A DNA stretch of 32,000 nt from an uncultured Acidimicrobiaceae bacterium (GCA_963702305.1 CAVPBX010000007.1:92998-124997); one strand, 5' to 3'; positions 3,404-25,006 are shown, numbered from the stretch's first letter. A program made the numbers and translations. Notes: generated by a model from the sequence alone, not told the origin.

Positions 3404-3409
3404 AACGAG

Positions 3410-8153: not shown

Positions 8154-8539
8154 GACGCTGCTCCTTGTTCTAGGTGTCGGGGGTTGGCGGGTTGTTCATC
8201 GCCGCGCATCTCGGCCAGCACGGCGTCGAGGCGCTCGTAACGCTCTTGAGCCTGTTGGCGGTACCGGTCGATCCACTTCGTCATCAGGTCGAAAACCTCG
8301 GCTTCGAGATGACACGGCCGCCGCTGGGCGTCCTTCGTCTGGCTCACCAGGCCGGCGTCGGCTAGCACCTTGATGTGCTTGGACACCGCCTGGACTGAGA
8401 CGTCGTAGGGGTCGGCCAGCTCCCCCACGGTGGCGTCGCCCACGGCCAGGCGCGCCACCATGTCGCGCCTCGTTGGATCGGCCAGAGCGGCGAACACTCG
8501 GGACAGCTGGTCGTCGGCCACGGACGACTCCTTCTTCAC
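8150..8539 (-). CDS. ArsR/SmtB-family regulator, first gene of the ArsR-SRPBCC-DinB operon
   Basis: VFAALADPTRRDMVARLAVGDATVGELADPYDVSVQAVSKHIKVLADAGLV. Confidence 0.85.
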   Translation of the reverse strand: MKKESSVADDQLSRVFAALADPTRRDMVARLAVGDATVGELADPYDVSVQAVSKHIKVLADAGLVSQTKDAQRRPCHLEAEVFDLMTKWIDRYRQQAQERYERLDAVLAEMRGDEQPANPRHLEQGAAS

Positions 8540-8546
8540 TGAATCG

Positions 8547-8598
8547 TTGAATACAACCTACGCCAGGGACAAATCGTTGTCAACCCCTAGGTTGAATA
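8547..8598. promoter_or_regulatory. Nested inverted repeats upstream of the ArsR gene; candidate operator
   Basis: CAACCTA (8554-8560) pairs with TAGGTTG (8588-8594). These enclose GACAA-atcg-TTGTC (8568-8581). The whole is flanked by direct TTGAATA copies (8547-8553 and 8592-8598). Confidence 0.3.
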
Positions 8599-8636
8599 GG
8601 AGGGTGGCCAGCGGTTATGTGACACCCTTTCCCGGC

Positions 8637-9998: not shown

Positions 9999-10097
9999 CG
10001 CATCACCCCACGCAGCCCTAACGACTCATCTGCGCTTGCCGGGACGTGCTGGTTGAGCCGCGAGCTGTCCCAGCCTGGTTAGGAGCGACTCCTTTTC

Positions 10098-10538
10098 TCA
10101 GCTCAGCTGCTCGGCCAGCGCGAGGATTATTCCGCTCGGCCCGCGGAGATAGCAGAGCAGGTAGCTGTCCTCGTAGCGCGTCACTTCGCCAACGAGTTCG
10201 GCGCCGTGCGGGCGGAGGCGGGCGAGGGTGTCCTCGATGTCGTCAACGGCGAACATGACACGGTGCAGGCCCAGCGTGTTCGCCGGGGTGATCTCCGGCT
10301 TGGGGGTGATCGCCTTCGGGGTGTGATACTTCGTCAGTTCGAGCCGGCCCGGGGCGTCCGGGATCCGCATCATCGCGATCTCGCTTCTCATGTCGTCGAG
10401 CCCGACGACGTTTCCCGCCCAGCTTCCTTCGATCGGCATCCTGCCTTCCAGCTCCATACCGAGTTCGGTGAAGAAAGCGACGGCGGCGTCGAGGTCGTCG
10501 ACGACGATCCCGACGTTGTCCATGCGCTGAATTGTCAT
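10098..10538 (-). CDS. VOC/glyoxalase family protein
   Basis: MDNVGIVVDDLDAAVAFFTELGMELEG ... LHRVMFAVDDIEDTLARL is a two-module VOC fold signature. Confidence 0.8.
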   Translation of the reverse strand: MTIQRMDNVGIVVDDLDAAVAFFTELGMELEGRMPIEGSWAGNVVGLDDMRSEIAMMRIPDAPGRLELTKYHTPKAITPKPEITPANTLGLHRVMFAVDDIEDTLARLRPHGAELVGEVTRYEDSYLLCYLRGPSGIILALAEQLS

Positions 10539-10628
10539 GTCTCAAACGATAGGGGCCGGGTCCGACGCCGTCGGCTCAGCCAGCCGTCTCCTCACGCCGT
10601 ATCCACAGCTGGGCCATACTCTCGACCC

Positions 10629-13223
10629 TCAGGGCAGGATCTCAACGTACCCCTCCGTTCCATTGAGGCGGATCCGCTGCCGATCGCGGATGAGCCGGGT
10701 GGCTTGCTCGACGCCCACGACAGCCGGCAAGCCGTACTCCCGGGCGATGACTGCGCCATGGGTCATCAGGCCGCCGACCTCCGTCACCAGGCCCGTGATC
10801 GCGACGAACAGGGGCGACCAGCTGGGGTCGGTGTAGGCCGTGACCAGGATGTCGCCCGGCTCGAGATCGGCCTCGGCCATGTCCATGATGACGCGGGCCC
10901 GCCCCTCGATGATCCCGGCGGATACCGGCAAACCAACTAGCGCGCCGGTCGGCACGTCGTGGCGTCGGTACGCCCCGGCGACTACCTCGCCATCCGACGT
11001 AAACACCCGGGGCGGCGTCAGCGCTTGATACGACCTGAACGCGTCCTTGCGCTGGGAGATGAGCTCATCATCCGCGTGGTTCGTGCGCACGACGTCGTGG
11101 AACTCTTGGAACGTGAGGTAGTACATGTCTTCCTTCTCACGAAGCACACGCGCCTGCACGAGCCGCCCGGCCTCTTCCAGCAAAGCCTGCTTGTACACGA
11201 AGTAGCGGCTGACCATGCCGTACTTCGGATACTCCCGGTACCCGATGAAGGTCCGGACCCGGTCGATCATCCGCTTGACCTCATCCGCCTTACGCTCCCC
11301 GTCCGGCAAGTCCCCCAAGCGCGCCAGCAGCTCTTGTTCCTTCTCCCAGGCCTCCTGCCGGCCTTGCTCGAAGCGCCGCTCGCCGGCGCCCGGCTCGAAG
11401 TTCTTGATGTTGCCGAGGATCAGGGGCACGAGCGTGGAGGGGCGTTCGCTCCATCGTGGTCTCGTGATGTCGATCTCACCGACGCAGCGCATGCCGTACT
11501 TGTCGAGGTAGGCCCGGATGGCGTCGCGGGCTTCCCGCCCGCCCGTAAGTTTGGCCATCTCGTCCAAGAAACCGTCGTCGTCGATGTGTCGCAGAAGCGC
11601 CACCACCTCCGGATACGGACGGATCACGTCCGCGACGTCCAGGAGCGCGAGCCCCATCTCCGACGTGACGTTATGGGGGACAGACTGGGTGAGCGTGTCC
11701 GCCGCGTTCTTCTCGCCCAGCCACGCCTCCAGCTGCTCGTTCAGCCACCACGTGGCCTCCATCGCCGACATGAACACCTGATGGCTGCGCGGATCGAACA
11801 GGATCCGCCTCAGCTCTTGGATGTCCGCCAAGATGAAGTCGAGCAGCGCCGATCCGGACGTCGTCGCGATGTCGCGCTTCAAGGCGGCAATGGAGGCCTC
11901 GCTACGTCCGATCAGATCGGTGACGATGGCCGGATCGGTCTCGATCGGCGCTGGCGCGCCGCCAGCCGGCATCGCATTCGGGCCCTCGTCAGGGAGCGAC
12001 GGGATGAAGTCGTCGCGTTCGAGGATGGTCTCTAGCGCGTCCCCGATCAGCGGATCGCCCCTTCCCAGGACCTCCAAGAGACCGGCGCGACTCGCTGGCG
12101 ACGCCAGGCCCACGGCGACATCGACGAAGAGCCTCCCACCGGCCACGTACATCGGCCGAGGTGTGGTCAGCTGCCAGAAGGAGAGCCCCAGGGGCTTCAT
12201 CGCGTCGGTCATCATCTGCGCATGACCGACAGACACGTACACATGGTTCTCTTGGTCGCCGGCCGCAGGGATAGGAAACAGTGTGGTGATCGGCCGGCTC
12301 TGGACGATCCGGAAGCTGTCATCGACCAGGCACCATTCGATGTCCTGGGGGCGGCCGAAGTGCCCTTCGATCCGCCGTCCCAACTGCGCGACTCGCACGA
12401 CCTGCGCATCAGTCAGTGCTGGCTTCTCCTGACGCTCCGGCTCGATCGCCAGTTCCTGCGTCCCGCCTGCCGGCGAGGCGTGAATGGCCAGCTGCTTGGT
12501 GGCGACCGCCTTGGCGACGATCTCGCCGTCCCGCACCTGGTAGACGTCCGCGTTCACCCGGCCGGAGACCAGGGCCTCGCCGAGTCCGAAGGTGGCCTCC
12601 ACCGAGCTGACCTTCCGGTTTGACGTGACCGGGTCGGCCGTGAAGACGACGCCGGCCGCCTGCGGGAAGACCATCTGCTGCACCACCACGGCCATGTGGA
12701 CCTTCCGGTGGTCGAATCCATTCCGCAAGCGGTAGGTCACGGCCCGATCGGTGAACAGGGAGGCCCAGCACCGACTGACGTGCTCGAGGATCGCCGCTGG
12801 CCCCACGACGTTCAGGTACGTGTCCTGCTGGCCGGCGAAGGAAGCAGACGGCAAGTCCTCCGCCGTCGCACTCGATCGGACTGCGTAAGCAGCATGTTCG
12901 CCGAGCCCGGCGACCGAGCCGGTGATCGCCGCCGCCAGATCGTCGGGGATGGCAATCCCTTCGATGGTCCGGCGGATCTCCGCGCTGAGCGTGCGGATCG
13001 CCTCCCGGTCATCCGGGCTCAGGCGCGACAGCCGACCGAGCCGATCGTCGATCGACGGCGCGTTCGCCATGATCCGCCGGAAGGCGTCCGTCGTCACACA
13101 GAAGCCGGCCGGTACGCGGATGCCTTCGATCCGCGAAAGCTCCCCAAGGTGCGCGCCCTTGCCGCCAACAACCGCGACTTGCGTCCGGTCGATCTCCTGG
13201 AAACCCAGCACGTAGCTGCCCAT
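10629..13223 (-). CDS. rph: PEP-utilising enzyme of the rifampin phosphotransferase (RPH) type, also annotated as phosphoenolpyruvate synthase-like
   Basis: 864 aa. N-terminal ATP-grasp (VVGGKGAHLGEL, FAVRSSATAEDLP..SFAGQ). C-terminal swivel phosphohistidine domain (TDPSWSPLF...GGLMTHGAVIAREYGLPAVVG). This architecture and length fit Rph. Start at ATG 13223 with a GGAAGGTGG Shine-Dalgarno sequence. The 13418 extension was rejected. Confidence 0.75.
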   Translation of the reverse strand: MGSYVLGFQEIDRTQVAVVGGKGAHLGELSRIEGIRVPAGFCVTTDAFRRIMANAPSIDDRLGRLSRLSPDDREAIRTLSAEIRRTIEGIAIPDDLAAAITGSVAGLGEHAAYAVRSSATAEDLPSASFAGQQDTYLNVVGPAAILEHVSRCWASLFTDRAVTYRLRNGFDHRKVHMAVVVQQMVFPQAAGVVFTADPVTSNRKVSSVEATFGLGEALVSGRVNADVYQVRDGEIVAKAVATKQLAIHASPAGGTQELAIEPERQEKPALTDAQVVRVAQLGRRIEGHFGRPQDIEWCLVDDSFRIVQSRPITTLFPIPAAGDQENHVYVSVGHAQMMTDAMKPLGLSFWQLTTPRPMYVAGGRLFVDVAVGLASPASRAGLLEVLGRGDPLIGDALETILERDDFIPSLPDEGPNAMPAGGAPAPIETDPAIVTDLIGRSEASIAALKRDIATTSGSALLDFILADIQELRRILFDPRSHQVFMSAMEATWWLNEQLEAWLGEKNAADTLTQSVPHNVTSEMGLALLDVADVIRPYPEVVALLRHIDDDGFLDEMAKLTGGREARDAIRAYLDKYGMRCVGEIDITRPRWSERPSTLVPLILGNIKNFEPGAGERRFEQGRQEAWEKEQELLARLGDLPDGERKADEVKRMIDRVRTFIGYREYPKYGMVSRYFVYKQALLEEAGRLVQARVLREKEDMYYLTFQEFHDVVRTNHADDELISQRKDAFRSYQALTPPRVFTSDGEVVAGAYRRHDVPTGALVGLPVSAGIIEGRARVIMDMAEADLEPGDILVTAYTDPSWSPLFVAITGLVTEVGGLMTHGAVIAREYGLPAVVGVEQATRLIRDRQRIRLNGTEGYVEILP

Positions 13224-13323
13224 CCGTCCACCTTCCCCTGAGCCGCCTCGGGCGCCTCTTGTCCCACGGTCAAACGGGCGGACGCCTCCGGTCCGGCCTG
13301 TGGCGTGCATTGTCAGCACACAA

Positions 13324-13344
13324 GGGGTCCTTGCAACAAGCCCC
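13324..13344. promoter_or_regulatory. Imperfect palindrome GGGGTCCTTGCAACAAGCCCC about 100 bp upstream of rph; resembles the rifamycin-associated element (RAE)
   Basis: GGGG..CTTG pairs with CAAG CCCC, with a 2-nt bulge and a 3-nt centre. Its position upstream of a rifamycin-resistance-type gene matches published RAE behaviour as I recall it. I could not check the consensus here. Confidence 0.4.
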
Positions 13345-13560
13345 CCACCCTGGTGTACATTGCTTATGGCGGAAGGGTGAATCGGCATCCTTGGCGGCAC
13401 CAGAGCCGGGCACGTCACCGAAGCTGGGGCTTATGCCTCCGCAATGAAGCGCACGCCACGGGAGTCGCTTTGTGTCGAACCTCCACACCAAGGGGACAAC
13501 GTGGCGCTACGCGTTCCGAAGGCGGAGCTCAGCACCGACATGAGGGAATTCCCCTGATCG

Positions 13561-14670
13561 TCATCTGCCAGGGTGCGGTGGCGCGGCGGGGAGTTGCACG
13601 GTGACGCAGAGGCCGCCCGCGGCCCGGGGGGTGAGGGTGAGGGTTCCGTCGTGTGCTTGGGTGATGCTCTTGACGATGGCCAGGCCGAGGCCGACACCGG
13701 CGTGGTCGGTGCGTATGCGCTTGGAGCCGCGCTGAAACGGCTCGACCAGCGTCGAAACCAGCTGTGGGGTGAGCTGCTCGCCGGTGTTCTCGACCGTGAG
13801 CACCACCCTCTTGGGGTGGGCGCTGGTGGTGACCCAGACGGTGCCCTGTTCGGTCAGGTTGTGGACGATCGCGTTGTGTACGAGGTTCGTCGTCATCTGC
13901 AGCAGGAGGGCGGGTGAGCCGGTGGTGGGGGTGGTGTCGCCAGAGGTCTCGATGGTGAGGCCGCGCTTTTCTGCGAGGGGAAGGAGCGTTTCGGTGGCTT
14001 GTTCGGCGAGGAGGGACAGGTCGACGTGTTCTGGGGTGAAAGAGCGCTGGTCGGCCCGACTGAGCAGGAGCAGTGCTTCGGTGAGGTCGATCGCTCGGGT
14101 GTTGACGAAGTGGAGGCGGTCGACCAGTTCGTCGTGGCCGCAGCTTTGACCGTTGCGGGCCACCTCGAGAAGTGTTTGTGTGATGGCGAGCGGAGTGCGC
14201 AGTTCGTGGGAGGCGTTGGCTGCGAACCTCTGCTGTTCAGCGATCTGTGTTTCGAGCCGGGCGAGCATGGCATCGAAGGCGTCGGCGAGGTCGCGGAACT
14301 CGTCGCGGCGGCCCGGCAGCCGGATTCGGTGGGCGAGCGATCCGGTCGTGGCCGTGCGGGTGGCGTCGGTAATGCGAGTCAGGGGGGCGAGCATGCGGCC
14401 GGCAAGCAGCCACCCACCCACGAGACCGAACACCAGCAGGAAAGCCAACACGGCGGCTGCCCTGGGCGCGAAAACGTGCAGGAGGTTGGACCGAACGGGA
14501 AAGACGCCATGAATGGAGGTGTCGGCGTTGACGAGGAACGCACGGTCGGGGACGTACCGCAGGAGGAACAGCCACACGGCGGCGAGCAGCATGGCGCCGG
14601 CGAGCATGAGGAAGCCGGCGTAGCTGAGGGTGAGTTTGAGGCGAACGCTCAAACCTGGGGCTCTATCCAC
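13561..14670 (-). CDS. vanS: VanS-type sensor histidine kinase
   Basis: Two TM helices with a short loop of about 30 aa, a HAMP domain, the H-box NASHELRTPLA, and N/G boxes (LVHNAIVHN, GVGLGLAIV). GTG start at 14670 overlaps the vanR stop by 8 nt. Identity rests on its partner and its context next to vanHAX. Confidence 0.8.
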   Translation of the reverse strand: MDRAPGLSVRLKLTLSYAGFLMLAGAMLLAAVWLFLLRYVPDRAFLVNADTSIHGVFPVRSNLLHVFAPRAAAVLAFLLVFGLVGGWLLAGRMLAPLTRITDATRTATTGSLAHRIRLPGRRDEFRDLADAFDAMLARLETQIAEQQRFAANASHELRTPLAITQTLLEVARNGQSCGHDELVDRLHFVNTRAIDLTEALLLLSRADQRSFTPEHVDLSLLAEQATETLLPLAEKRGLTIETSGDTTPTTGSPALLLQMTTNLVHNAIVHNLTEQGTVWVTTSAHPKRVVLTVENTGEQLTPQLVSTLVEPFQRGSKRIRTDHAGVGLGLAIVKSITQAHDGTLTLTPRAAGGLCVTVQLPAAPPHPGR

Positions 14671-15358
14671 GGTCTCCTCCCTCACGCCCTGAGTCTGGGT
14701 GAGTGTCGATGCGGTACCCGACGCCGGCCACGGTGGCGATGAGCCAAGGTTCGCCAAGGCGTTTGCGCAGCGCCGAGACCGTGATGCGCACCGCGTTGGT
14801 GAACGGGTCCGCGTTCTCATCCCACGCCCGTTCCAGCAGATCTTCGGCGCTGACCACGCCGCCTTCGGCCGCCACCAGAACCTCGAGCACCGCGAACTGC
14901 TTCCGGGTCAGCGCGACGTAGCGGCCGTCGCGGTACACCTCGCGGCGGAACGCATCCAACCGCAGACCCGCGATCTCTCGCACCGGCGGCCGGTTGTGAG
15001 CCCGCCGGCGGTCGAGCGCTCTGAGACGAAGCACCAGCTCCCGCAGCTCGAATGGCTTGGTGAGATAGTCGTCAGCGCCGAGTCCGAACCCCGAGGCCTT
15101 GTCGTCAAGCCGGTCGGCAGCGGTGAGCATGAGGATCGGCATGCCGCTACCAGAAGCGACGATGCGCTTGGCGATCTCGTCGCCAGAGAGCCCGGGGATA
15201 TCGCGGTCAAGCACGGCGATGTCGTAGGCGTTGACGCCCAGCAGATGTAAAGCGGTGTCGCCGTCACCGGCGATGTCCGCGGCGATCGCTTCCAGGCGAA
15301 GACCATCGCGGATGGCTTCTGCCATATAGGGCTCGTCCTCGACGATCAACACACGCAC
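14663..15358 (-). CDS. vanR: VanR-type OmpR-family response regulator
   Basis: MRVLIVEDEPYMAEAIRDGLRLEAIAADIAGDGDTAL...DIAVLDRDIPG...LTKPF... followed by a winged-helix C-terminus. From memory it closely resembles actinomycete VanR. It is divergent from a vanH-type promoter. Confidence 0.85.
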   Translation of the reverse strand: MRVLIVEDEPYMAEAIRDGLRLEAIAADIAGDGDTALHLLGVNAYDIAVLDRDIPGLSGDEIAKRIVASGSGMPILMLTAADRLDDKASGFGLGADDYLTKPFELRELVLRLRALDRRRAHNRPPVREIAGLRLDAFRREVYRDGRYVALTRKQFAVLEVLVAAEGGVVSAEDLLERAWDENADPFTNAVRITVSALRKRLGEPWLIATVAGVGYRIDTHPDSGREGGDRG

Positions 15359-15454
15359 ACTCTCGCGATGCTAGGCGCCGGGGCATATCGTCGGCGTATC
15401 GAAAACCGCATACGGGCTGGTAACACCACGCTGCGTTGACTGGAGGCATGACCT
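15329..15454. repeat. Copy A of the vanR-vanH control region: vanR codons 1-10, an 89-bp divergent intergenic region, and a dead vanH start stub
   Basis: Aligns colinearly with 16843-16970 at roughly 80% identity by eye. It ends in GGAGGC-ATGACCT, a 12-codon ORF (15448-15486, MTYSDSQGSHDT*) homologous to the vanH start. Weaker similarity may extend to about 15478. Confidence 0.8.
15385..15401. promoter_or_regulatory. Candidate VanR box, copy A: ATATCG-N5-GTATCG (11-bp phased direct repeat)
   Basis: The hexamers start at 15385 and 15396. The box lies 27 nt from the vanR GTG and 47 nt from the stub ATG. It is conserved in copy B. Confidence 0.45.
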
Positions 15455-15582
15455 ACAGCGACTCCCAGGGTTCCCATGACACGTGACGAATCGGCCTATG
15501 CCGGGCACTCGGCGCGACCAACGGCCATGTCCGCATCGGACTCCTCTCCGAGGCCATCTACGTCATCACCAATGCCGCAGCC

Positions 15583-16818
15583 GTGACCCAGCAGCGCACC
15601 AGGCCCGGCCGCGACGCCGACTGCCTGCCGGAGGAGTACCTCCGTCTCGAGCGGCGGTCGGCTCGGCGCCCACCCGCCAGGGGCCGGCGGCGGAGGGGGC
15701 GGATGGCCGTCCGGGTCCTGTCGGTGGCCCTCGGCCTGCTCGTGCTGTTCCTCGGGGCGTCGGTGTACGGAGCCGCCACCACGCCGGGCAACCAGAACTT
15801 CAAGGCCAAATGGGCCGACTGGTTGCGGTCCCACCACGCCGCCTTCGTCGTCAAGCCACTGGAGCAGTGGTACTACAACAGCCAGGCCCCGGCCAAGGGT
15901 GGCGCTCCCAAGGCCCTCAACCGGATCCCGGCGGCCTCTGCCCACCCGGCGGGCACCTCGGCGGCACCCGCCGGCCTGCCCGCCCCCAGCCCGGTACCGC
16001 TGGTCGTATCACCGGCCCTCCCGGGTGAGGGCCAGTGGCAGCCCACGGGGCCGATCGTCGACGGCCGGGCCGCCAGTTACGTGGCCCAGTTCCGGGCCGA
16101 CACCATCTACACCAGCCAGATCACCTCGGCGGTCTGGATCGACCCCACCCGGCTGAGGATCCGACTCGTCCCCGGCGCCCAAGAGCCGGGCGGTACCTGG
16201 AGCGTGCCGCCCGACCTCACCGGCACGGCGGCCGCCCAGGCGGTGGCCGCCTTCAACGGGGGGTTCCGGTTCCAGGATGCCCACGGCGGGTTCTACCTGG
16301 GCGGTCGCACCGCCGTACCCCTGGTGAACGGCGCCGCGTCGGTGGTCATCTACAAGGACGGCCGGGTCAACGTCGGCGCCTGGGGCACCGACGTGGCCAT
16401 GACCCCCTCGGTCGAGGCCGTCCTGCAGAACCTGGTGCCGCTGGTCGACAACGGCCAGATCGCCCCCGACGCCACCTACCACGACACCCACATCTGGGGG
16501 AACACCCTCGGCGCCAACACCGTCGTGGCCCGCTCCGGGCTGGGGGTGACGACGTCGGGGGCGCTGATGTACGTGGCCGGCCCGGCCCTGACGGCCAAGA
16601 CGCTGGCCGAGTCGCTGCAGCGGGCCGGGGCAGTGCGGGGGATGACCCTCGACATCAACCCGGAGTGGGTTACGTTCAACTTCTACACCCACCCCGACCC
16701 CGCCGATCCCACCTCGATCACCGGAGCCAAGCTGTATCCGCAGATGCAGCGCTCGGCCGACCGGTACCTCGGCCCCACCGAGGAGTCGCGTGACTTCTTC
16801 TCCGTGTCGACCAGCTGA
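15583..16818 (+). CDS. Membrane-anchored phosphodiester glycosidase family (NAGPA/DUF2233-like) exo-protein
   Basis: Arg-rich N-terminus, TM helix VLSVALGLLVLFLGASVYG, then AAFNGGF...GGFYLGG, VARSGLGVT..GALMYVAGP, GMTLDINPEWV, typical of the bacterial phosphodiester glycosidase family. GTG 15583, or ATG 15703 as an alternative start. Confidence 0.7.
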   Translation: MTQQRTRPGRDADCLPEEYLRLERRSARRPPARGRRRRGRMAVRVLSVALGLLVLFLGASVYGAATTPGNQNFKAKWADWLRSHHAAFVVKPLEQWYYNSQAPAKGGAPKALNRIPAASAHPAGTSAAPAGLPAPSPVPLVVSPALPGEGQWQPTGPIVDGRAASYVAQFRADTIYTSQITSAVWIDPTRLRIRLVPGAQEPGGTWSVPPDLTGTAAAQAVAAFNGGFRFQDAHGGFYLGGRTAVPLVNGAASVVIYKDGRVNVGAWGTDVAMTPSVEAVLQNLVPLVDNGQIAPDATYHDTHIWGNTLGANTVVARSGLGVTTSGALMYVAGPALTAKTLAESLQRAGAVRGMTLDINPEWVTFNFYTHPDPADPTSITGAKLYPQMQRSADRYLGPTEESRDFFSVSTS

Positions 16819-16842
16819 ACGCGGAGGGCTTCTCCCTTGTCA

Positions 16843-16970
16843 GGGCTCGTCCTCGACCGTCAACACACACCCACACACTCGCGATCGTACGAACCGGAAC
16901 ATATCGTCGGTATATCGAAAACTACATACGTGCTGGCAACAGGCCGCGGCGTTGAATGGAGGCGTGACCT
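16843..16970. repeat. Copy B of the vanR-vanH control region: dead vanR 5-prime stub, promoter region, and the live vanH start
   Basis: The minus strand at 16866-16840 reads GTG TTG ACG GTC GAG GAC GAG CCC TGA (VLTVEDEP*), compared with vanR MRVLIVEDEP. Homology stops exactly after codon 10. The copy ends at the GGAGGC-GTGACCT vanH start. Confidence 0.8.
16901..16917. promoter_or_regulatory. Candidate VanR box, copy B: ATATCG-N5-ATATCG (perfect 11-bp phased direct repeat), 47 nt upstream of the vanH GTG
   Basis: The hexamers are at 16901-16906 and 16912-16917. The distance to the start codon is the same as in copy A. Confidence 0.45.
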
Positions 16971-17953
16971 CTGGCAAAGCAGATAGCGCCGTCCCAAGGG
17001 TGGGAATCACCATCTACGGGTGCGGGCCGGACGAAGCCCTTTTGTTCCGAGAGATGGCGCCTCGCTTTGGCGTCAAGCCAACTATCACCGATGCCGCGGC
17101 ATCAGATGCAACTATTGACTTGGCATCTGGGAATCGATGCGTCAGCGTCGGCCACAAGACTCAAATCTCAGGTGACATTCTGCTTGCGCTTCGCCAAGCC
17201 GGTGTTATGTACCTCTCCACTAGAAGTGTTGGATACAACCATATCGATGTCAAACTGGCGGAGAGCGTCGGCATCTCCGTTGAAAACGTCACCTATTCTC
17301 CGGACAGCGTTGCTGACTACACGTTGATGTTGATGCTCATGGCGGTGCGGAATGCCAAATCCACCATCAGCCGCGCCCAGGTTCATGATTACCGATTGAA
17401 TGAAGTACGAGGGAAAGAACTCCGCGACCTGACCATCGGAGTCATCGGAACAGGACACATCGGTGCCGCCGTGATGGACAGGCTGCGGGGGTTTGGTTGC
17501 CACGTACTGGCCTGTGACCGTTGTCCGAAGACCTCTGCCGAATACCTGCCTCTCGACGAGCTGCTACGGCAGAGCGACCTTGTGACGCTCCATACACCAC
17601 TCACCGCCGACACCCACCATCTGCTGAATCGTCAACGTATCGGGCAGATGAGGCACGGAGCATTCATTATCAATACGGGGCGTGGTGCACTTCTCGATAC
17701 CGAGGCCCTTGTCCCGGCGCTGGAGAGCGGCCGCCTCGGGGGTGCGGCGTTGGATGTCCTCGAAGGCGAGGAAGGAGTCTTCTACTCTGACCACAGAAGG
17801 AGACCCATTCAAAGCCAACTGTTGTTGCGGTTACAACAGTTACCGAATGTGCTGATTACTCCGCACACCGGCTACTACACCGATCACGCCCTGAGCGATA
17901 CCGTCGAAAACACGTTCCTCAATTGCCTGCGCTTTGAAAGAAGAGAAGCGTGA
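16964..17953 (+). CDS. vanH: VanH, D-specific alpha-keto acid (pyruvate to D-lactate) dehydrogenase
   Basis: ITIYGCG...GYNHID...IGVIGTGHIGAAV (NAD-binding GxGxxG)...NTGRGALLD...ITPHTGYYT. GTG start with a GGAGG Shine-Dalgarno sequence. GTGA coupling to the ligase gene. About 329 aa. Confidence 0.9.
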   Translation: MTSGKADSAVPRVGITIYGCGPDEALLFREMAPRFGVKPTITDAAASDATIDLASGNRCVSVGHKTQISGDILLALRQAGVMYLSTRSVGYNHIDVKLAESVGISVENVTYSPDSVADYTLMLMLMAVRNAKSTISRAQVHDYRLNEVRGKELRDLTIGVIGTGHIGAAVMDRLRGFGCHVLACDRCPKTSAEYLPLDELLRQSDLVTLHTPLTADTHHLLNRQRIGQMRHGAFIINTGRGALLDTEALVPALESGRLGGAALDVLEGEEGVFYSDHRRRPIQSQLLLRLQQLPNVLITPHTGYYTDHALSDTVENTFLNCLRFERREA

Positions 17954-18984
17954 ATAGGTTGAGAGTCGCAGTCATCTTCGGAGGTTGCTCCGAAGAACAT
18001 CCCATCTCGGTCAAATCCGCGCAGGAGGTGGCAACACACCTCGACCTTGAGAAGTATGAACCGTTCTATATCGGGATCACAAGAAGCGGTACCTGGAAGC
18101 TCTGTGACGGCCCTGACGCAGGCTGGGACAACGGCAGCTGCCGTCCGGCGATGCTGTCACCGGACAGAGGCCTACACGGATTGCTTGTCCTGAAGCAGGG
18201 CCACTACGAAACGATCAGTCTGGACCTCGTCTTCCCCGTGCTCCACGGCAAACTCGGCGAGGACGGGGCGATACAAGGTCTGCTGGAGCTGTCCGGCATC
18301 CCCTACGTAGGCTGCGATGTCCAAAGTTCTGCCCTGTGCATGGACAAATCTCTTGCCTATCTCGTTGCGAGCAACGCGGGAATTGCTATACCAAGGTTCT
18401 GGACCGTCACGGCGAACGAGGATCTCGACCCCGACCGGATTACTTATCCAGTCTTCGTGAAGCCGGCCCGTTCGGGTTCATCGTTCGGCGTCAGTCGTGT
18501 AAGTGAGAAACAAGAGCTGCCGAGTGCGGTTGAGACCGCAAGGCAATACGACTCGAAAGTGTTGATCGAAGAGGTTGTTGTCGGCAGCGAGGTGGGATGC
18601 GCGATCTTCGGGAACGACACGGATTTGATTGCAGGAGAGCCAGATCGAATCTCGCTAGCTCATGGGTTCTTTAGAATCCATCAGGAGAATCAGCCTGAAA
18701 GCGGTTCTGAGAACTCCACTTTCATCGTTCCCGCCGACATCTCGACAGAGGCGCGCGACCTCGTTCAGGAAACAGCAAAGACCCTATATCGAGCCTTGGG
18801 ATGCAGGGGACTCTCGCGAGTGGACATGTTCCTGAAGGAAGACGGAACGGTAGTCCTGAACGAGGTCAACACGCTGCCCGGTATGACCTCATACAGCCGT
18901 TATCCGAGAATGATGGCAGCCGCGGGACTGTCGCTGGCCGATGTGATCGACCGGATCGTGTCGTTGGCGTTGAACGGAAAGTGA
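17950..18984 (+). CDS. vanA: VanA-type D-alanine--(R)-lactate ligase
   Basis: MNRLRVAVIFGGCSEEHPISVKSA...EKYEPFYIGITRSGTWK...GEDGAIQGLLELSGIPYVGCDVQSSALCMDKSL...YPVFVKPARSGSSFGV...FRIHQENQPESGSEN...NEVNTLPGMTSYSRYPRMMAAAG is near-colinear with enterococcal VanA as I remember it, including the omega-loop and the HQE region characteristic of D-Ala-D-Lac ligases. Confidence 0.92.
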   Translation: MNRLRVAVIFGGCSEEHPISVKSAQEVATHLDLEKYEPFYIGITRSGTWKLCDGPDAGWDNGSCRPAMLSPDRGLHGLLVLKQGHYETISLDLVFPVLHGKLGEDGAIQGLLELSGIPYVGCDVQSSALCMDKSLAYLVASNAGIAIPRFWTVTANEDLDPDRITYPVFVKPARSGSSFGVSRVSEKQELPSAVETARQYDSKVLIEEVVVGSEVGCAIFGNDTDLIAGEPDRISLAHGFFRIHQENQPESGSENSTFIVPADISTEARDLVQETAKTLYRALGCRGLSRVDMFLKEDGTVVLNEVNTLPGMTSYSRYPRMMAAAGLSLADVIDRIVSLALNGK

Positions 18985-19613
18985 TGATGCACGAGGACTT
19001 TGTCTTTGTCGACGAGATCGTATCCGGAGTACGTTGGGATGCGAAGTACGCCACGTGGGACAATTTCACTGGCAAGCCGGTGGACGGATATCTAGTAAAT
19101 CGGATCGTCGGCTCGCGGACCTTGTGTGCGGCCCTGGGGACAGCGCGAGAGGTAGCAGGATCCCTTGGCTTCGGCTTGCTGCTCTGGGACGGGTATCGTC
19201 CTCAACGCGCCGTGGATTGCTTCCTGCGCTGGTCCAGACAGCCGGAAGATGACCGGACGAAACGAAGACACTATCCTCACATCGACAGGTCCGAGATCGT
19301 CGCACAAGGATATGTAGCTGAGAAGTCGGGCCACAGTCGGGGCAGCACCGTTGACTTGACGCTCTATCACTTGGCCACCGGTGAACTCGCTCCAATGGGC
19401 GGGGACCATGACCTGATGGATCCGATCTCACATCATGGAGCAAAGGGAATCACGCAAGTTGAAGCGAGAAACCGGCAGCGCCTTCGTTCGATCATGGAGT
19501 CCGGCGGGTTTAGATCCTACGATTGCGAGTGGTGGCATTACACACTGAAGGACGAACCCTATCCGAGCACCTATTTTGATTTTCCCATCACCACTGTTGA
19601 GCCAATTGAATAG
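18984..19613 (+). CDS. vanX: VanX D-Ala-D-Ala dipeptidase
   Basis: DAKYATWDNFTG, LLLWDGYRP, SGHSRGSTVDLTL (Zn ligands), CEWWHYTL. The ATG overlaps the ligase stop codon (TGATG). Confidence 0.92.
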   Translation: MMHEDFVFVDEIVSGVRWDAKYATWDNFTGKPVDGYLVNRIVGSRTLCAALGTAREVAGSLGFGLLLWDGYRPQRAVDCFLRWSRQPEDDRTKRRHYPHIDRSEIVAQGYVAEKSGHSRGSTVDLTLYHLATGELAPMGGDHDLMDPISHHGAKGITQVEARNRQRLRSIMESGGFRSYDCEWWHYTLKDEPYPSTYFDFPITTVEPIE

Positions 19614-20812
19614 ACTATGTCTGGGGGAGAGGTGCGGGTCGACGGGATGGTGACGGTGCAGGAGAGGCCTCCGTCGTTACGGGGGCGGGCGGTGGTGGTA
19701 CCGCCGTGGATCTCGGCAATGGACGCCACGATGGTCAGGCCCAGGCCGAAGCCGTCGTTCGACGAGCGGTTGTTGAGCCGCTGGAATGGATGGAAGATGC
19801 GGTCGGCGTCCGCCGGGCTGATGATTTGGCCAGTGTTTGCGACGGTTAGCTGGCTGTTTCCGGCTGCGGTACGGGTGCTGATCCAGATGTCGCCGGAAGC
19901 GACGTTGTAGCGCACCGCGTTGTCGACCAGGTTGGCGATGAGGCGTTCGACGAGCACCGGATCGCCGGATATGACGGCGCGTTCCAGCGTGGCGTGCACT
20001 TGCCGGTCGCTCAGGCCGGCGGTGTCGAGGATGTCTTCGGCGACCGTGGCCAGGTCGATCTCCTCGTGGACCGCGAGGCCGCGCTCGTTGCGGGCGAGGA
20101 TGAGTAGCGCGCCGATGAGGTGCTCGGCGTGATCCACGGCGGCGCGGATGTCGGCCGCCATGGCTCGCAGCTCGCCGGGGGTGCTGTCAGGGTTGCCGAC
20201 CACGACGTCGATCGTCGTGCCCATGACGGCGAGGGGGGTGCGCAGTTCGTGGGAGGCGTTGGCGATGAACCGCTGTTGGGCTTCGAACGCGGTCTGGAGC
20301 CGGCCGAGCATGTCGTCGAACGTCTCGGCCAGCTCTCGGAGTTCGTCCCGGGGACCTCTCGGCGCGATCCGCGCCGAGAGGTTGTGTTGCGAGGCGGCGC
20401 GGGCGGCCGCGGTGATCCGGTGTACTGGGCGCAGCGCCCGCCCGGCGAAGATCCATCCGAGGATGGCGGCGAGGGCGATGACGACGCCGAGGGTGATCAG
20501 CGAGTACTGCAGCAGGCGCGTCAGGGTGAGGGCGCGCTGCGCTTGCGCGCCCAGGTCGGCCAGAAAAGACCCGGGGCAATTGGAGGAGCCGAGGAAGCGC
20601 TTGTCGCCGCTCAGGTACGCGGACTTGCAGTGAGCCAAGAAGCTGGCCGGAACGCCACTATACGAAGCAGGTGGCTGGGCCTGCCTGGCCACCCCTAGCT
20701 GAGCCACCAGGGTGTAGCTGACGGCCACGATGATCCCCCCACACAGGGCGAACAGGCCGGTGTAGATCAGGGTCAGGCGGGCTCGGACGGTCAGGCGCGG
20801 ACCGCGGGTCAC
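19571..20812 (-). CDS. Sensor histidine kinase (HK2), paralogous to VanS
   Basis: TM1 LTLIYTGLFALCGGIIVAVSYTLVA, an extracytoplasmic loop of about 60 aa with two Cys residues, TM2, HAMP, and the H-box NASHELRTPLA. GTGA overlap with RR2. Its last 14 codons plus the stop codon are antisense to the vanX 3-prime end (43-bp convergent overlap). Confidence 0.8.
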   Translation of the reverse strand: MTRGPRLTVRARLTLIYTGLFALCGGIIVAVSYTLVAQLGVARQAQPPASYSGVPASFLAHCKSAYLSGDKRFLGSSNCPGSFLADLGAQAQRALTLTRLLQYSLITLGVVIALAAILGWIFAGRALRPVHRITAAARAASQHNLSARIAPRGPRDELRELAETFDDMLGRLQTAFEAQQRFIANASHELRTPLAVMGTTIDVVVGNPDSTPGELRAMAADIRAAVDHAEHLIGALLILARNERGLAVHEEIDLATVAEDILDTAGLSDRQVHATLERAVISGDPVLVERLIANLVDNAVRYNVASGDIWISTRTAAGNSQLTVANTGQIISPADADRIFHPFQRLNNRSSNDGFGLGLTIVASIAEIHGGTTTARPRNDGGLSCTVTIPSTRTSPPDIVYSIGSTVVMGKSK

Positions 20813-21453
20813 ATTCTGTATCCCTTGCCTACGACGGTCTCGATCAACGGCGGGTCGCCGAGCTTGCGCCGCAGCCGGGTCATAGTGACGGAGACGATAT
20901 TGCTGAACGGGTCGGAGTTGGCGTCCCACACCTGTTCGAGCAGCTCCTCTGCGCTGACCAAGGCGCCGTCAGCGGCCAGCAGCGTCTCGAGGATCCCGAA
21001 CTCTTTGCGGGTCAGCGTGAGCGGGCTGCCGGCGCGCATGGCGCGGTGGCGGGCGCGGTCGACGGTGAGGTCCTCGCGGACCAATACTGGCGGCGCTGAC
21101 GGCGCTCGGCGCGACAGCGCCCGCACGCGGGCGACGAGCTCGGCGAATGCGAATGGCTTGGGCAGGTAGTCGTCCGCGCCCAGTTCCAGCCCGTCGACGC
21201 GGTCATCGACGTCCCCGGCGGCGGTCAGCATGAGGATCCTCGGGCCGGAGCCGGCTACGTCCCGGCAGACCCGGTCCCCATGGAGGACCGGTAGGTCGCG
21301 GTCGAGCACGATTACGTCATAGGCCGTCTGGTCGGCGGCGTCCAGTGCGGCCGCGCCGTCATACACGACGTCGGTGGCCATCCCGGCCTGACGCAGCCCT
21401 TGAGCGATCCGGTCGGCGAGCGTCGCATGGTCTTCGACCACCAGGACGCGCAT
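20809..21453 (-). CDS. OmpR-family response regulator (RR2)
   Basis: MRVLVVEDHATLADRIAQGL...YDVIVLDRDLPVLHGD...LPKPF...LTRKEFGILETL...GKGYRM. ATG 21453 chosen; the 21720 extension was rejected. Confidence 0.85.
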   Translation of the reverse strand: MRVLVVEDHATLADRIAQGLRQAGMATDVVYDGAAALDAADQTAYDVIVLDRDLPVLHGDRVCRDVAGSGPRILMLTAAGDVDDRVDGLELGADDYLPKPFAFAELVARVRALSRRAPSAPPVLVREDLTVDRARHRAMRAGSPLTLTRKEFGILETLLAADGALVSAEELLEQVWDANSDPFSNIVSVTMTRLRRKLGDPPLIETVVGKGYRM

Positions 21454-21539: not shown

Positions 21540-22214
21540 ATGAAGCCAGTTCATCCTGCCGGCCGCCCTTGCAGAGGCGACGGCCCGCTGCGCCTCGTCC
21601 GGTCGAACGTCGAGGGCACGGGATGGATCGTCGGCGGGCGGGGAGCCTGGCGGCCCAGGAGCGTTTCGCTGACCGCGCTGTTGATTGTCGTGTTGGGTCT
21701 GACCGCGTGCGGGGGCGCATCGTCGCACCGCCCGGGAACTGCCAGCGCCGTCGGTACCACCACCAGCGCCTCGGCCGGTGGCAGTACGCAAGCAGGCGGA
21801 CTCCTGGCGTTCGCCTCCTGTATGCGCTCGCACGGCGTGCCGAACTTCCCCGACCCGACCGCCAGCGGTGGGATCCCGAAGCCTGCCGTTGTCAGCGCAT
21901 TCCAGGCGGTCGGCAACGCCCAGGCGCAGGCGGCCCAGAACGCCTGCAACCACTTGCTCCCCGCCGGAGGGTTGAGTGGGCAGGCCAGCCAGACGGTCAC
22001 CGCCCAAGACCAGCAGGACTACCTCAACGCTGCTGCCTGTATGCGCTCGCACGGGATCACCAACTTCCCCGACCCCGTCTTCTCCAACGGCCACGTCAAC
22101 CTCAACATCCCCTCCAGCATCGACAGCAAGTCACCGCAGTTCACCCAGGCCGCCCAGACCTGCACAAAGCTCATCCCCGCGGGACTCCCCTACAGCAGGG
22201 GCTCCGGAGGATGA
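21540..22214 (+). CDS. Lipoprotein with two tandem CMRSHG-x3-FPDP ... C repeat units, function unknown
   Basis: Lipobox LGLTAC. Unit 1 is FASCMRSHGVPNFPDP...AAQNACNHLLP. Unit 2 is AAACMRSHGITNFPDP...AAQTCTKLIP. Divergent from RR2. The 3-prime end overlaps the RR3 3-prime end by 25 bp. Confidence 0.7.
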   Translation: MKPVHPAGRPCRGDGPLRLVRSNVEGTGWIVGGRGAWRPRSVSLTALLIVVLGLTACGGASSHRPGTASAVGTTTSASAGGSTQAGGLLAFASCMRSHGVPNFPDPTASGGIPKPAVVSAFQAVGNAQAQAAQNACNHLLPAGGLSGQASQTVTAQDQQDYLNAAACMRSHGITNFPDPVFSNGHVNLNIPSSIDSKSPQFTQAAQTCTKLIPAGLPYSRGSGG

Positions 22215-22888
22215 CGCGATGTCAGCGTTGGGTCGATGATCCGGTAGCCGACCCCGGGGATGGTTTCGATCACGTCGGGGGGGCCGAGTTTGCGGCGCAG
22301 CCGGCCGATGGTGACCTGAACCGTTTTGGTGAAGGGGTCGGTGTGTTCGTCCCAAGCCTGTTCGAGGAGGTCCTCGGTGCTGAGGGTGGCGGGCGAGGCC
22401 CGCATGAGCGCTTCGAGCACGGCGAACTCCTTGGTGGTCAGCTCGCACGGCTGGCCGGCCCGGGAGGTGGTCCGGCGGAGCGGGTCGAGCTCGAGGTCGG
22501 CCGCTTTGAGGATGCGGGGCTGAGCGGTGGGTTTTCGTCGGGCCAGGGCCCGCAGCCGCAGGACCAGCTCAGGGAAGTGGAACGGTTTGGGCAGGTAGTC
22601 ATCCGCGCCGAGCCCGAGCCCGCTGACCCGATCCGCGGGGGCGTCGGCCGCGGTGAGCATGAGCACCATGGCCGGGTCATCGCTCTCGGTGATCATCTTG
22701 CAGATGGTGTCGCCGTGGATACCGGGAAGGTCGCGGTCCAGTACGACGACGTCGTAGCGGTTGATGTCCAGCTTGGCGGCGGCGTCGAGCCCCGTGTAGG
22801 CGACGTCGACCGCCATGCCTCGGTCTCGGAGGCCCTCGGCGATGTCGTCGGCCAGTCGCCGCACGTCTTCCACGACCAGCACCTTCAT
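22190..22888 (-). CDS. OmpR-family response regulator (RR3)
   Basis: MKVLVVEDVRRLADDIAEGL...YDVVVLDRDLPGIHGD...LPKPF...LTTKEFAVLEAL...GVGYRI. ATGA overlap with the upstream kinase gene. Confidence 0.85.
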   Translation of the reverse strand: MKVLVVEDVRRLADDIAEGLRDRGMAVDVAYTGLDAAAKLDINRYDVVVLDRDLPGIHGDTICKMITESDDPAMVLMLTAADAPADRVSGLGLGADDYLPKPFHFPELVLRLRALARRKPTAQPRILKAADLELDPLRRTTSRAGQPCELTTKEFAVLEALMRASPATLSTEDLLEQAWDEHTDPFTKTVQVTIGRLRRKLGPPDVIETIPGVGYRIIDPTLTSRHPPEPLL

Positions 22889-24142
22889 GGCAACTCTCGA
22901 TTCGGGCAGGGGGGTGCGGCGTGAGGAAGCTCGACCGCCACGCGCATCCCTCCTTGTGGGCGGGCCCCGAGTTCGATGGTTCCGTGGTGGGCGGCGGCGA
23001 TGGCTGCGACGATGGACAGACCGAGCCCGAGCCCGCCGTCGGCGCCGGTCCGCTCGCCGCCGCCTCGCCAGAACGGTCGGCCCAACTGGCCGGCCTCGGC
23101 GGGTTCGAGGATGGGACCGCTGTTCTCGACGATCAAGCGGGCGGATGGACCCTCAGTCGTGGTTGTGACCTGCACCCACCCGCCGGGCTGGTTGTAGCGG
23201 ATGGCGTTGTCGATCAGGTTGACGGCGAGACGGGCAAGGAGGGTTCGGCTGCCGGCGACCTCCGCCTCGTCAAGGCGGCGGTGCAGGGTCACGTCGGCTG
23301 CGACGGCACCGTCGGCTCGGGTGTCGAGAGCGTCCGCGGTGAGGTGGGGCAACGAGACCGTCGTCAGGTCGTCGATCATCCCCCGCTGGGCTCGGGCCAG
23401 CACCAGGAAGCTCTCCACCAGCCGTTCGGCCTGGTCGAGCCCCTCGCGGACCTTGGCCGAAAGCACCGACGCGTCCTTCGAAATGGGCGGAGACTTGGCC
23501 GCGGCAACATCCAGGGAGGTGCGCATCATGGCGAGCGGGGTGCGAAGCTCGTGCGAGGCGTTGGCCACGAAAGCTCGCTGGGCGCCGAAGGCGCCCTCCA
23601 GCCGGGCGACGAGCCCGTCGATGGTGTCAGCCAGGTCCGTGATCTCGTCACTCGGGCCGGCCAAGCCAAGCCGCTCGTGGAGGTTCTCCTCGGAGATGTG
23701 CCGCGCCGTGGAGGTGATGTGCCGCAGCGGGCGAAGCACCCGACCGGCCATGAGCCATCCCAGCACGACGGAGGCCAGGGCCATGACGCCCAACGCCACC
23801 GCGAACCACACCAGCAGAGTGCGCAAATCCGCGGAGTGCTGTGCGCTTGTCGCGCGCGCGCACCACGCCGGCGCCAGCCGGGAGGATGTGGACGGTGTTC
23901 GAGGGCCCAGGCGAGTGAATGACTGGGCTGCGTGGGGAGGTGATGTGGACGGTGGCCGCGAACGGGAAGCGGGCCACGAACAGGTAACTGATACCAAGCA
24001 GGGCCGCGCCGCAGAGAACGAACAGCGCCCCATAGGCGAGGGCGAGGCGCACCCGCACCGTCCGCCGGGGCAGGCGAGCGCGGGCCAACCGGCGGGCCAC
24101 ACAGGCGTAGGGTCCGAAGGCCACTCCGGTCACGGGTCGCAC
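22885..24142 (-). pseudogene. Sensor histidine kinase (HK3), apparently frameshifted in the extracytoplasmic loop
   Basis: TM1 (VRVRLALAYGALFVLCGAALLGISYLFVA) is in the frame of ORF 23648..24142. TM2, HAMP, the H-box (NASHELRTPLA) and the ATPase domain are in the frame of ORF 22885..24102. The frames switch near the (CG)5 tract at 23851-23861. Confidence 0.65.
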
Positions 24143-24266
24143 GCACTCACGGCCAACTCCGCCTGCACCTGCCGGCGCCGACGTCCGCGAACGCCAAATC
24201 CTGCTGCTCGTCCGACCCCCGATGACCTCTCTCCAGCCGCTTCACGGCCCCCAGCATGGCCCCTGG

Positions 24267-24311
24267 CCGGTAACAGGAAGGTAACAGGCTCTGTTGAGCC
24301 CCTGTTACCGG
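24267..24311. promoter_or_regulatory. Repeat cluster CCGGTAACAGG-aa-GGTAACAGG-N12-CCTGTTACCGG between HK3 and the lipoprotein/exporter operon; candidate response-regulator operator
   Basis: Direct repeats start at 24269 and 24280 (11-bp phasing). A perfect 11-nt inverted copy lies at 24301-24311. The cluster ends 56 nt upstream of ATG 24367. Confidence 0.55.
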
Positions 24312-24366
24312 CGATGTCGTACAACCACCTCCGAACGGTCGTTCGCGAGGAAGGAGCCACGACATC

Positions 24367-24976
24367 ATGGACAAAGACACTGGCCGCTCCCCAGCGGTCA
24401 ACAAATGCCGGTTGCGACGAGTCTGGCGTGCCAGCCTCCCTCTCGTCGGGCTGGCGACCATCGGGCTGCTGGCCGCCGCTTGCGGGAGCGGCTCGAAGGT
24501 TCTGGGGGTCCCGAGCGCCGGGGGGACCACCACGACCGTCGCCCCGTCTGGGTCGTCCGGTTCGGGCGCTTCGGGGGAGACGAGCCAGTCGCAGGAGCTG
24601 CAATTCGCGCAGTGCATGCGGTCCCACGGGGTCGCCGGTTTCCCCGACCCCAGCGCCACCGTGGGCCAACTCCAAAACATCGCCAACTCGGGCGTCAACA
24701 CCCAATTCGCCCACCTACCAGGCGGCCGAGACAGCCTGTAAGAAGTACACCCCGGCCGGGAACATGACCCCGGCCCAGAGCGCCGCCGATAACGCCAAGG
24801 GAGTCCAAGCCTCGCAGTGCATGCGCTCCCACGGGGTGCCCAACTTCCCCGATCCCATCGTCGGCCCAACTGGTGGGCAAGTGATCAACTTGAACGGCTT
24901 GGGCATCGATCTCAACAGCCCGATCTTCCAGGCGGCCCGTGCGGCCTGCCAGAAGATCGTTCCCGGCAGCAAATGA
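24367..24976 (+). pseudogene. Second CMRSHG-x3-FPDP repeat lipoprotein, apparently disrupted by a +1 frameshift
   Basis: Lipobox LLAAAC and unit 1 (FAQCMRSHGVAGFPDP...NSGVNT) are in frame 1. The rest (NSPTYQAAETACKKYTP, then unit 2 ASQCMRSHGVPNFPDP...AARAACQKIVP) is in frame 2. The switch is at the ACCC run at 24700-24703. Removing one C restores a 202-aa protein colinear with the 21540 paralog. Confidence 0.6.
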
Positions 24977-25006
24977 GCGCGACCTCCCAATTGGCGAGGG
25001 AGTCTG

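Follow-up and report, generated by a model that had tools for sequence, protein, structure and literature searches.

The glycopeptide-resistance clusters closest to the one described here are those of the actinobacterial vanO/VanA-Sc type, which have the five core genes vanRS and vanHAX and often murF in addition (PMC8698665). We analyzed a 32,000-nucleotide stretch of DNA, called the window below, from an uncultured Acidimicrobiaceae bacterium (GCA_963702305.1, CAVPBX010000007.1:92998-124997), in which vanH, vanA, and vanX make up a low-GC stretch with sharp edges; all positions are counted from the first letter of the window. The initial annotation took this stretch to be a fragment of about 2.8 kb that had arrived here on its own, between a truncated vanR stub on the left and a convergent kinase gene, HK2, on the right. 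We find that the vanRS-vanHAX locus belongs to the already known actinobacterial cluster type and that its neighborhood has been rearranged. Our reading, to which we assign a probability of roughly three in four, is that vanH, vanA, and vanX of the low-GC stretch form the core of an ordinary VanO/VanA-Sc-type glycopeptide-resistance cluster of an uncultured member of the Acidimicrobiales, with its cognate vanS-vanR pair 1.6 kb to the left.

Comparison with described systems

Like the vanO/VanA-Sc clusters, the window has all five core genes. In those clusters vanR and vanH are ancestrally adjacent and divergent, as they are in related loci L002 and L005 (L numbers designate loci and contigs used for comparison), whereas in the window an NAGPA-family gene and a duplicated promoter region stand between them. 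The window differs further in that murF, which is co-localized with van genes in several actinobacterial orders (PMC8698665), has been lost, and in that vanX converges on and overlaps the gene for a paralogous kinase. A 2021 survey found van-like genes in 0 of 216 Acidimicrobiales genomes (PMC8698665). The VanHAX triad and VanRS have been described as independently acquired, with functional and regulatory van genes of different origin (PMC8698665; PMC11273654); GC content is not discussed in these two surveys.

The VanA-type element Tn1546 of enterococci shares the VanH/VanA/VanX chemistry and the control by VanRS, and there too the composition of the van genes differs from that of the host. 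The offset in the window is opposite in direction, however, with van genes that are GC-poorer than the host, and the window has no transposase, resolvase, or inverted repeats. Features of the Tn1546/Tn1549 kind (transposition or conjugation genes, terminal inverted repeats) were not found around its van genes, and against the VanA model, with its cutoff of 775 bits, the ligase reaches 522. In Streptomyces coelicolor, a glycopeptide non-producer, Hong et al. in 2004 reportedly described the cluster vanSRJKHAX, a VanRS regulon with several VanR-dependent promoters, including some for accessory genes. The multiple promoters of that reported cluster resemble the two promoter copies found here, but its accessory genes vanJ and vanK do not encode a glycosidase and its gene order differs.

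Ligases of the actinobacterial type also occur outside the Actinomycetota, in the vanI cluster of Desulfitobacterium and in vanHAX of Ktedonobacteria (PMC4229326, PMC9689679). The best-scoring NCBIfam models for the window ligase are VanI (665 bits) and VanA-Sc (624 bits), and VanA proteins of Bacillota and Chloroflexota are 78-85% identical to it. The regulators in those hosts are unrelated, with VanR-like proteins only 31-33% identical to VanR of the window.

Gene content of the cluster

Gene families were assigned from Pfam and NCBIfam profiles, and function and regulation are taken from family membership. The genes of the cluster, and the rph gene linked to it, are as follows.

10629-13226, minus strand: rph, rifamycin-inactivating phosphotransferase (NCBIfam equivalog NF041857, 1598 bits against a cutoff of 999)
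13561-14670 (start approximate), minus strand: vanS, the first of three kinase genes in the window (HK1), with Pfam domains HAMP, HisKA, and HATPase_c; best NCBIfam model VanS-O
14663-15358, minus strand: vanR, response regulator, with Pfam domains Response_reg and Trans_reg_C; best NCBIfam model VanR-O
17000-17953, plus strand: vanH, D-lactate dehydrogenase with a GTG start; Pfam 2-Hacid_dh and 2-Hacid_dh_C, complete
17950-18984, plus strand: vanA-type D-Ala-D-Lac ligase (NCBIfam equivalog NF000206, 622 bits against a cutoff of 550)
18984-19613, plus strand: vanX, D-Ala-D-Ala dipeptidase (NCBIfam NF033115, 387 bits against a cutoff of 320)

At the protein level the ligase matches annotated D-alanine-(R)-lactate ligases of actinobacteria at 82-90% identity, and its stop codon shares one nucleotide with the ATG of vanX. 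The product of 17000-17953 is very probably VanH: its score of 534.1 bits against NCBIfam model vanH_gen is 6 bits under the curated threshold of 540, and it is 71-84% identical to the VanH proteins of related loci, encoded at the same offset from vanA. VanS scores 487 bits against VanS-O and VanR 463 bits against VanR-O, both under the allele-specific cutoffs of 720 and 505.

vanRS and vanHAX have a common history

Three relatives allow the regulators and the resistance core to be compared directly. DNA identity to L001, L005, and L002 is 85, 85, and 82% for vanSR and 86, 85, and 82% for vanHAX; distances at four-fold sites are 0.41, 0.44, and 0.43 for vanRS and 0.40, 0.44, and 0.53 for vanHAX. 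Distance matrices of VanHAX and VanRS, built over 35 clusters, are correlated (Mantel r = 0.63, p <= 0.0005). The corresponding values among VanH, VanA, and VanX are 0.55-0.71 (0.71 for VanH and VanA, 0.59 for VanA and VanX), and that between VanR and VanS is 0.48. By these matrices vanRS and vanHAX are correlated as well as vanH, vanA, and vanX are with one another. VanR and VanS of the window are 85-94% and 66-83% identical, respectively, to the pairs that adjoin vanHAX in 38 clusters.

Gene arrangement agrees. In L002 and L005, vanSR sits directly and divergently beside vanH. The order rph-vanS-vanR-NAGPA-vanHAX is common to the window and L001, and homology to L001 is unbroken from rph through vanHAX (10631-19588) except for the NAGPA insert; the rph gene itself (186-2783 in L001) occupies an identical position in the locus, at 86% DNA identity. 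By these comparisons vanS-vanR is the predicted cognate regulator pair, co-inherited with vanHAX. The arrival of a 2.8-kb fragment at this place is contradicted by the synteny with L001 and the equal synonymous divergence, and it finds no support in the Mantel correlation. At a deeper level the host range of vanHAX is wider than that of vanRS of the type in the window.

Base composition of the low-GC stretch

The sharp low-GC island itself is real. GC content at 16843-19618 is 56.3%, compared with 67.0±1.7% (minimum 64.1%) in the 473 segments of the same length that do not overlap it, and maximum-likelihood change points fall at 16629-16862 on the left and 19610-19681 on the right. GC at third codon positions (GC3) is 0.635 in vanH, 0.667 in vanA, and 0.626 in vanX, which are 3.1 to 3.9 standard deviations below the mean of 21 other genes of the window (0.827±0.052, minimum 0.733). 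First and second positions (GC1 0.59-0.61, GC2 0.44-0.47) are also under those of most neighbors. At four-fold sites, GC is 0.615 in vanHAX and 0.824 in vanRS. Tetranucleotide composition, a check that had been suggested, shows the vanHAX stretch to be the largest outlier of the window (z = 5.4); its correlation with the remainder of the window is 0.72, where all other parts reach 0.915 or more. The 60-nt samples on which the island was first recognized are representative inside it (median 0.57), but the flank examples (0.80 at 16201-16260 and 0.72 at 20101-20160) came from the high side, the flank median being 0.68. Two TTA codons, of a kind seldom used by high-GC actinobacteria, occur in vanH.

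The GC offset in other hosts

A lower-GC vanHAX beside a high-GC vanRS had been called unusual in the initial annotation. It is instead the rule: GC3 of vanRS exceeds that of vanHAX in 37 of 38 clusters, by a mean of 0.11 (0.16 in the window), and vanA lies below its flanks in all 45 high-GC genomes. In low-GC genomes the sign is reversed, with vanA above flank GC in 12 of 12. Across these 57 genome loci, vanA GC regressed on flank GC has a slope of 0.43 (r = 0.89). An equally sharp step occurs at the boundary of vanX with murF or murG in L001, L002, and L170. VanHAX proteins are 77-85% identical across Actinomycetota, Chloroflexota, and Bacillota, whereas the VanR/VanS type of the window is confined to high-GC loci, the regulators of low-GC hosts being those with 31-33% identity. 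Lower GC is therefore probably an old trait of the whole vanHAX(-murF) core family, intermediate in every host examined. Because the offset is shared by 37 of 38 related clusters, atypical composition gives no date for an acquisition. In the papers searched we found vanHAX nowhere described as lower in GC than the actinobacteria that carry it; the nearest statement is a general value of about 65% GC for actinomycete van genes against about 50% in vancomycin-resistant enterococci (PMC3323079).

The NAGPA insert and the left edge

The region between vanR and vanH contains the following features.

15328-15460, plus strand: copy 1 of the segment made up of the vanR 5' end and the van promoter region; it contains the motif CATATCGTCGGCGTATCGAAA (15384-15404) and faces the NAGPA gene
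15583-16818 (start perhaps 15703), plus strand: NAGPA-family gene for a membrane-anchored phosphodiester glycosidase (Pfam PF09992)
16842-16881, minus strand: vanR stub, a duplicate, degenerate, and frameshifted copy of about the first 13 vanR codons and the bases just upstream
16865-16970, plus strand: copy 2 of the van promoter region, upstream of vanH, containing the motif (16900-16920)

Relative to loci of the L002/L005 type, the window has an insert of 1.5 kb (15461-16970), which holds the NAGPA gene and, behind it, the repeated vanR 5' end and promoter. The NAGPA gene, with a GC content of 72% and GC3 of 0.93, is missing between vanR and vanH in L002, L005, and at least 30 other clusters. 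The stub, which reads ..VLTVEDEP* on the minus strand, is 83% identical to the start of vanR at 15328-15367, and copy 2 is 80% identical to 15349-15454. The duplicated segment, about 130-150 bp in length, brackets the NAGPA gene and is the only flanking direct repeat found; it does not lie around vanHAX. The initial annotation was thus right that a vanR remnant marks the left edge, but that edge is not an insertion junction of vanHAX. With the NAGPA gene and the duplicate copy recognized as inserted, the left GC step becomes the boundary between a GC-rich inserted gene and the van promoter.

A motif, CATATCGNNGGNNTATCNAAA, is present in 42 related loci, and in most of them it lies upstream of vanH at a constant distance. 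In the window it occurs exactly twice, before NAGPA and before vanH, where 0.02 occurrences would be expected by chance. We treat it as a putative VanR-dependent promoter element. The vanH leader, from promoter to GTG (16970-17000), is about 100 nt shorter than in L001, L002, and L005.

In L001 (region 4783-6525) a NAGPA gene occupies the slot that it has in the window, but the two genes are only 41% identical in clusters whose DNA is about 85% identical, and the end-points of the duplication differ between the two loci. The nearest homologs of the window NAGPA gene (60-78%) are chromosomal; none is beside van genes, and none of those loci has the van motif. Native NAGPA orthologs often lie divergently beside an OmpR-type two-component system, as does the gene in the window. 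The pattern suggests that phosphodiester glycosidases have been captured more than once and that the NAGPA gene is a candidate VanR-regulated accessory resistance gene. An attempt to date the duplication relative to the split of window and L001 from the identity of promoter copies gave no clear grouping, the 83 alignment columns being too short.

The vanX-HK2 junction

The right edge of the low-GC stretch lies where vanX meets the convergent gene for HK2, with these features.

19592-19616, plus strand: vanX-murF spacer remnant, the first ~25 nt by comparison with about 60 loci; the remaining spacer sequence is absent, as is murF
19571-19618, minus strand: new tail of HK2, IVYSIGSTVVMGKSK, and stop codon, read from antisense vanX and spacer
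19617-19619: recombination junction, with van-type homology up to 19616 and homology to HK2 orthologs from 19618/19619
19619-20812, minus strand: native part of HK2, a VanS-like paralogous kinase, with 94% DNA identity to L006
20809-21453, minus strand: RR2, response regulator partner of HK2; the pair is syntenic in van-free L006, L007, and L008

The gene for HK2 extends over 19571-20812 on the minus strand (open reading frame 19571-20929), and vanX ends at 19613, which gives the 43-bp overlap described before. Pairwise matches between HK2 and VanS are partial and about 30% identical; among NCBIfam models VanS-O fits HK2 best, but with no more than 188 bits, and VanR-O fits RR2 best, also with a low score. 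More than 100 HK2 orthologs were retrieved. Ortholog tails read ...TSPQD|TNIHAHQQPDVPLLR, and the window protein, 92% identical to its closest ortholog, reads ...TSPPD|IVYSIGSTVVMGKSK; over a longer stretch, the closest ortholog ends ...TVTIPSAGTSPQD-TNIHAHQQPDVPLLR and HK2 of the window ends ...TVTIPSTRTSPPD-IVYSIGSTVVMGKSK, the native tail being ...DTNIHAHQQPDVPLLR. L006, at 94% DNA identity, aligns from 21588 down to exactly 19618, 47 nt short of the end of its own gene. HK2 has, by these alignments, exchanged its last 15 codons and stop for 15 codons and a chance stop from antisense vanX, as had been surmised: orthologs in van-free contigs keep their own, different tail, equal in length to the new one. 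The supporting comparison, that paralogous kinases end soon after an LP..PP segment, holds for HK1 and HK3, but true HK2 orthologs have about 15 more residues. The HATPase_c domain of HK2 is complete, ending 21 residues before the C-terminus (Pfam), and the replaced tail is poorly conserved among orthologs; the kinase is therefore probably still functional and the change probably neutral.

The vanX side is altered as well. In about 60 related loci vanX ends FDFPIT*, and in many loci of both Bacillota and Actinomycetota a conserved spacer of about 85 nt follows, TAGTTGAGCCGGCCAAAGAA...GGCAACATAATCTATA, and then a murF-like gene. In the closest relatives, L001, L002, and L009, murF follows vanX. 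In the window a small indel (19586-19613) has removed the canonical stop after FDFPIT, and a six-residue extension, TVEPIE, runs into the former spacer. Other loci have vanX with different extensions or with overlaps into murF. The spacer sequence TAGTTGAGCCGGCCAAAGAAATTGCCAAAAGCGTTGAAAGTACTTATAGCAGCTAATATTTAGGCAACATAATCTATA is seen just downstream of vanX in, for example, L028, L047, L036, and L052, and a comparison of the spacer with Rfam gave no meaningful match; it may be a promoter or leader of murF, or mark where the shared cassette ends. With both partners truncated and at most two bases unassigned, the join is clean, a signature of illegitimate recombination or deletion rather than of a site-specific element. 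A 20-nt similarity between 19595-19614 and 19771-19790 was considered as microhomology; its first copy is conserved spacer, and we take the match to be chance. A look for terminator-like structures where vanX and HK2 converge (19571-19700) found none, so transcripts of induced vanHAX could read through antisense into HK2-RR2.

A strain-variable block of 11 kb

The nearest strain sets wider limits to the variable region than the GC step does. JGI contig L171 is 99.3% identical to window positions 1-8609 and then continues into MFS and LuxR-family genes that are not in the window. To the right of 19618 there is synteny with the van-free contigs L006 (94%), L007 (83%), and L008 (86%). The block between these limits is as follows.

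8610-19618: block differing from the nearest strain, about 11 kb, with genes for a 453-aa protein and a glyoxalase-family protein, rph, vanS, vanR, NAGPA, and vanHAX

The strain-variable unit is therefore this block of about 11 kb and not one of 2.8 kb. Its GC content is host-like apart from vanHAX. The junction at 8609/8610 is also present in the independent Logan contig L172; it lies about 50 bp upstream of a gene for an ArsR-type regulator, with no repeats or tRNA there. As the initial annotation had stated for the edges of the low-GC stretch, there is no sign of a mobile element: Pfam scans of 30 open reading frames of the window found no transposase, integrase, or recombinase, and no tRNA genes, terminal inverted repeats, or bracketing repeats occur at 16843-19625 or 8610-19618. 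The 8-nt sequence 'TTGAATAG', found near 8600 and 19610, was rejected as an att core, as it lies within sequence common to the island-free contig L171.

The glyoxalase/bleomycin-resistance-family gene, at 10098-10541, is near rph and the van genes, and together these look like a small multi-antibiotic resistance block. To the right of the junction, the window carries another OmpR-type pair, RR3 (22190-22888) and HK3 (22885-24102), and 22230-25004 is an insert relative to L007; three paralogous kinase/regulator pairs are present in all. The housekeeping-type protein OtsA of the window has its nearest relatives in Acidiferrimicrobium (77%) and in metagenome-assembled genomes (MAGs) of Acidimicrobiales, and the host is placed in this order on that basis. 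Four MAGs labeled Acidimicrobiaceae (L013, L038, L040, L081) have vanSR-vanHAX.

Proposed history and alternatives

From the known functions of these families, VanS would sense the glycopeptide and phosphorylated VanR would activate promoters with the CATATCG..TATC.AAA motif; VanH would supply D-lactate, VanA would make D-Ala-D-Lac, and VanX would remove D-Ala-D-Ala. Two later and local events would account for the arrangement in the window. In one, a GC-rich NAGPA gene would have entered between vanR and vanH, duplicating about 130-150 bp, leaving the vanR stub, and placing one copy of the promoter before NAGPA and the other before vanH. In the other, an illegitimate recombination or deletion at 19617-19619 would have removed murF and most of the vanX-murF spacer, while the resident VanS-like kinase would have lost its last 15 codons and stop and come to run into antisense vanX. 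The sharp edges of the low-GC stretch would then be the product of these two events.

The obvious alternative is the one first proposed, in which a foreign fragment of about 2.8 kb, comprising stub, promoter, and vanHAX, came in recently and lodged between HK2 and a NAGPA gene already resident there, with vanRS of separate origin. It would explain why composition steps sharply at both ends, why a vanR stub lies at the left end, and why the HK2 tail is replaced, and it fits both the identity of only about 80% between the stub/promoter copy and the copy by vanR and the habit of native NAGPA orthologs of standing divergently beside an OmpR-type two-component system. Nevertheless, the divergence from three relatives, both at synonymous sites and in DNA identity, is equal for vanRS and vanHAX, and the rph-vanSR-NAGPA-vanHAX order shared with L001 makes the arrangement older than the genome of the window. 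Moreover, vanR and vanH are adjacent without NAGPA in L002, L005, L038, L040, and L081, where the GC contrast is already there, as it is in 37 of 38 clusters. We consider a recent insertion of this kind improbable. It is also unlikely that the join of vanX and HK2 at 19618 is an assembly chimera of two genomes or loci and the clipped kinase an artifact. The source resembles a metagenome-assembled contig, an independent contig with this junction is lacking, and the nearest relatives differ by side, L001 (86%) on one and L006 (94%) on the other; but no repeat is common to the two sides that could mislead an assembler, both sides are host-like in composition with relatives of Acidimicrobiales type, the join is clean to within two unassigned bases, and an independent Logan assembly shows the left boundary of the block, at 8609, as well. 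That the GC dip is unrelated to transfer and comes from amino-acid constraint on three highly conserved enzymes, is very unlikely. GC1 and GC2 of vanHAX are indeed also low, the proteins are about 80% identical across phyla, and there is no net amelioration in the lineage of the window. The largest deficit, however, is at third positions (0.63-0.67 against 0.83) and four-fold sites, which protein sequence does not constrain, and vanA GC follows the host in part (the slope of 0.43) and overshoots low-GC hosts, which fits exchange between hosts.

Several observations weigh against our reading of an ordinary cluster altered by two local events. Identity between the duplicate copies beside vanR and vanH is only about 80%, much the same divergence as between orthologous copies in other genomes. 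Recombination with a second van cluster could therefore have supplied the part made up of stub and vanHAX, which would be the earlier idea in weaker form. Such an origin, if real, predates the split from L001, and it leaves the GC offset unaccounted for. That offset is itself a difficulty for our reading, in that vanHAX stays GC-poorer than the co-inherited vanRS. Polarized four-fold changes in vanHAX of the window lineage number 14 of 64 from AT to GC and 20 of 121 from GC to AT; these small counts imply an equilibrium GC4 (GC at four-fold sites) of 0.57 against the present 0.615, and hence no net GC gain. No "empty site" was found, nor any contig that joins the two flanks directly; L171 runs into MFS/LuxR genes, and L007 and L008 into Usp/TetR or ABC genes. 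The events can therefore be read in two ways that differ in order and direction, as an 11-kb insertion or as a deletion between loci already linked. Finally, an exact-protein look-up for HK2 found no independent contig with the vanX/HK2 junction, and a chimeric assembly at 19618 keeps the low probability given above.

Significance

The chief consequence of reading this locus as an ordinary vanRS-vanHAX cluster is that the sharp composition step around vanHAX cannot be taken as a sign of recent insertion. It is a standing feature in every host examined, and it can persist beside regulators of common history for about 0.4 substitutions per synonymous site. The right junction provides a base-resolved case in which a rearrangement beside a resistance cluster rewrites the end of a neighboring gene without destroying that gene. 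We advance tentatively the further idea that a NAGPA gene has been recruited into the VanR regulon at least twice by promoter duplication and, separately, that GC3 of vanHAX stays about 0.1-0.2 under that of vanRS, unameliorated. If this is true, the lower GC3 would speak for ongoing exchange of the core between phyla, or for selection on composition, rather than for a fading signal of import. The NAGPA-family gene under a duplicated van promoter is a candidate new accessory gene. The presence in Acidimicrobiales of a complete vanRS-vanHAX cluster, linked to rph, points to a wider environmental reservoir of glycopeptide resistance.

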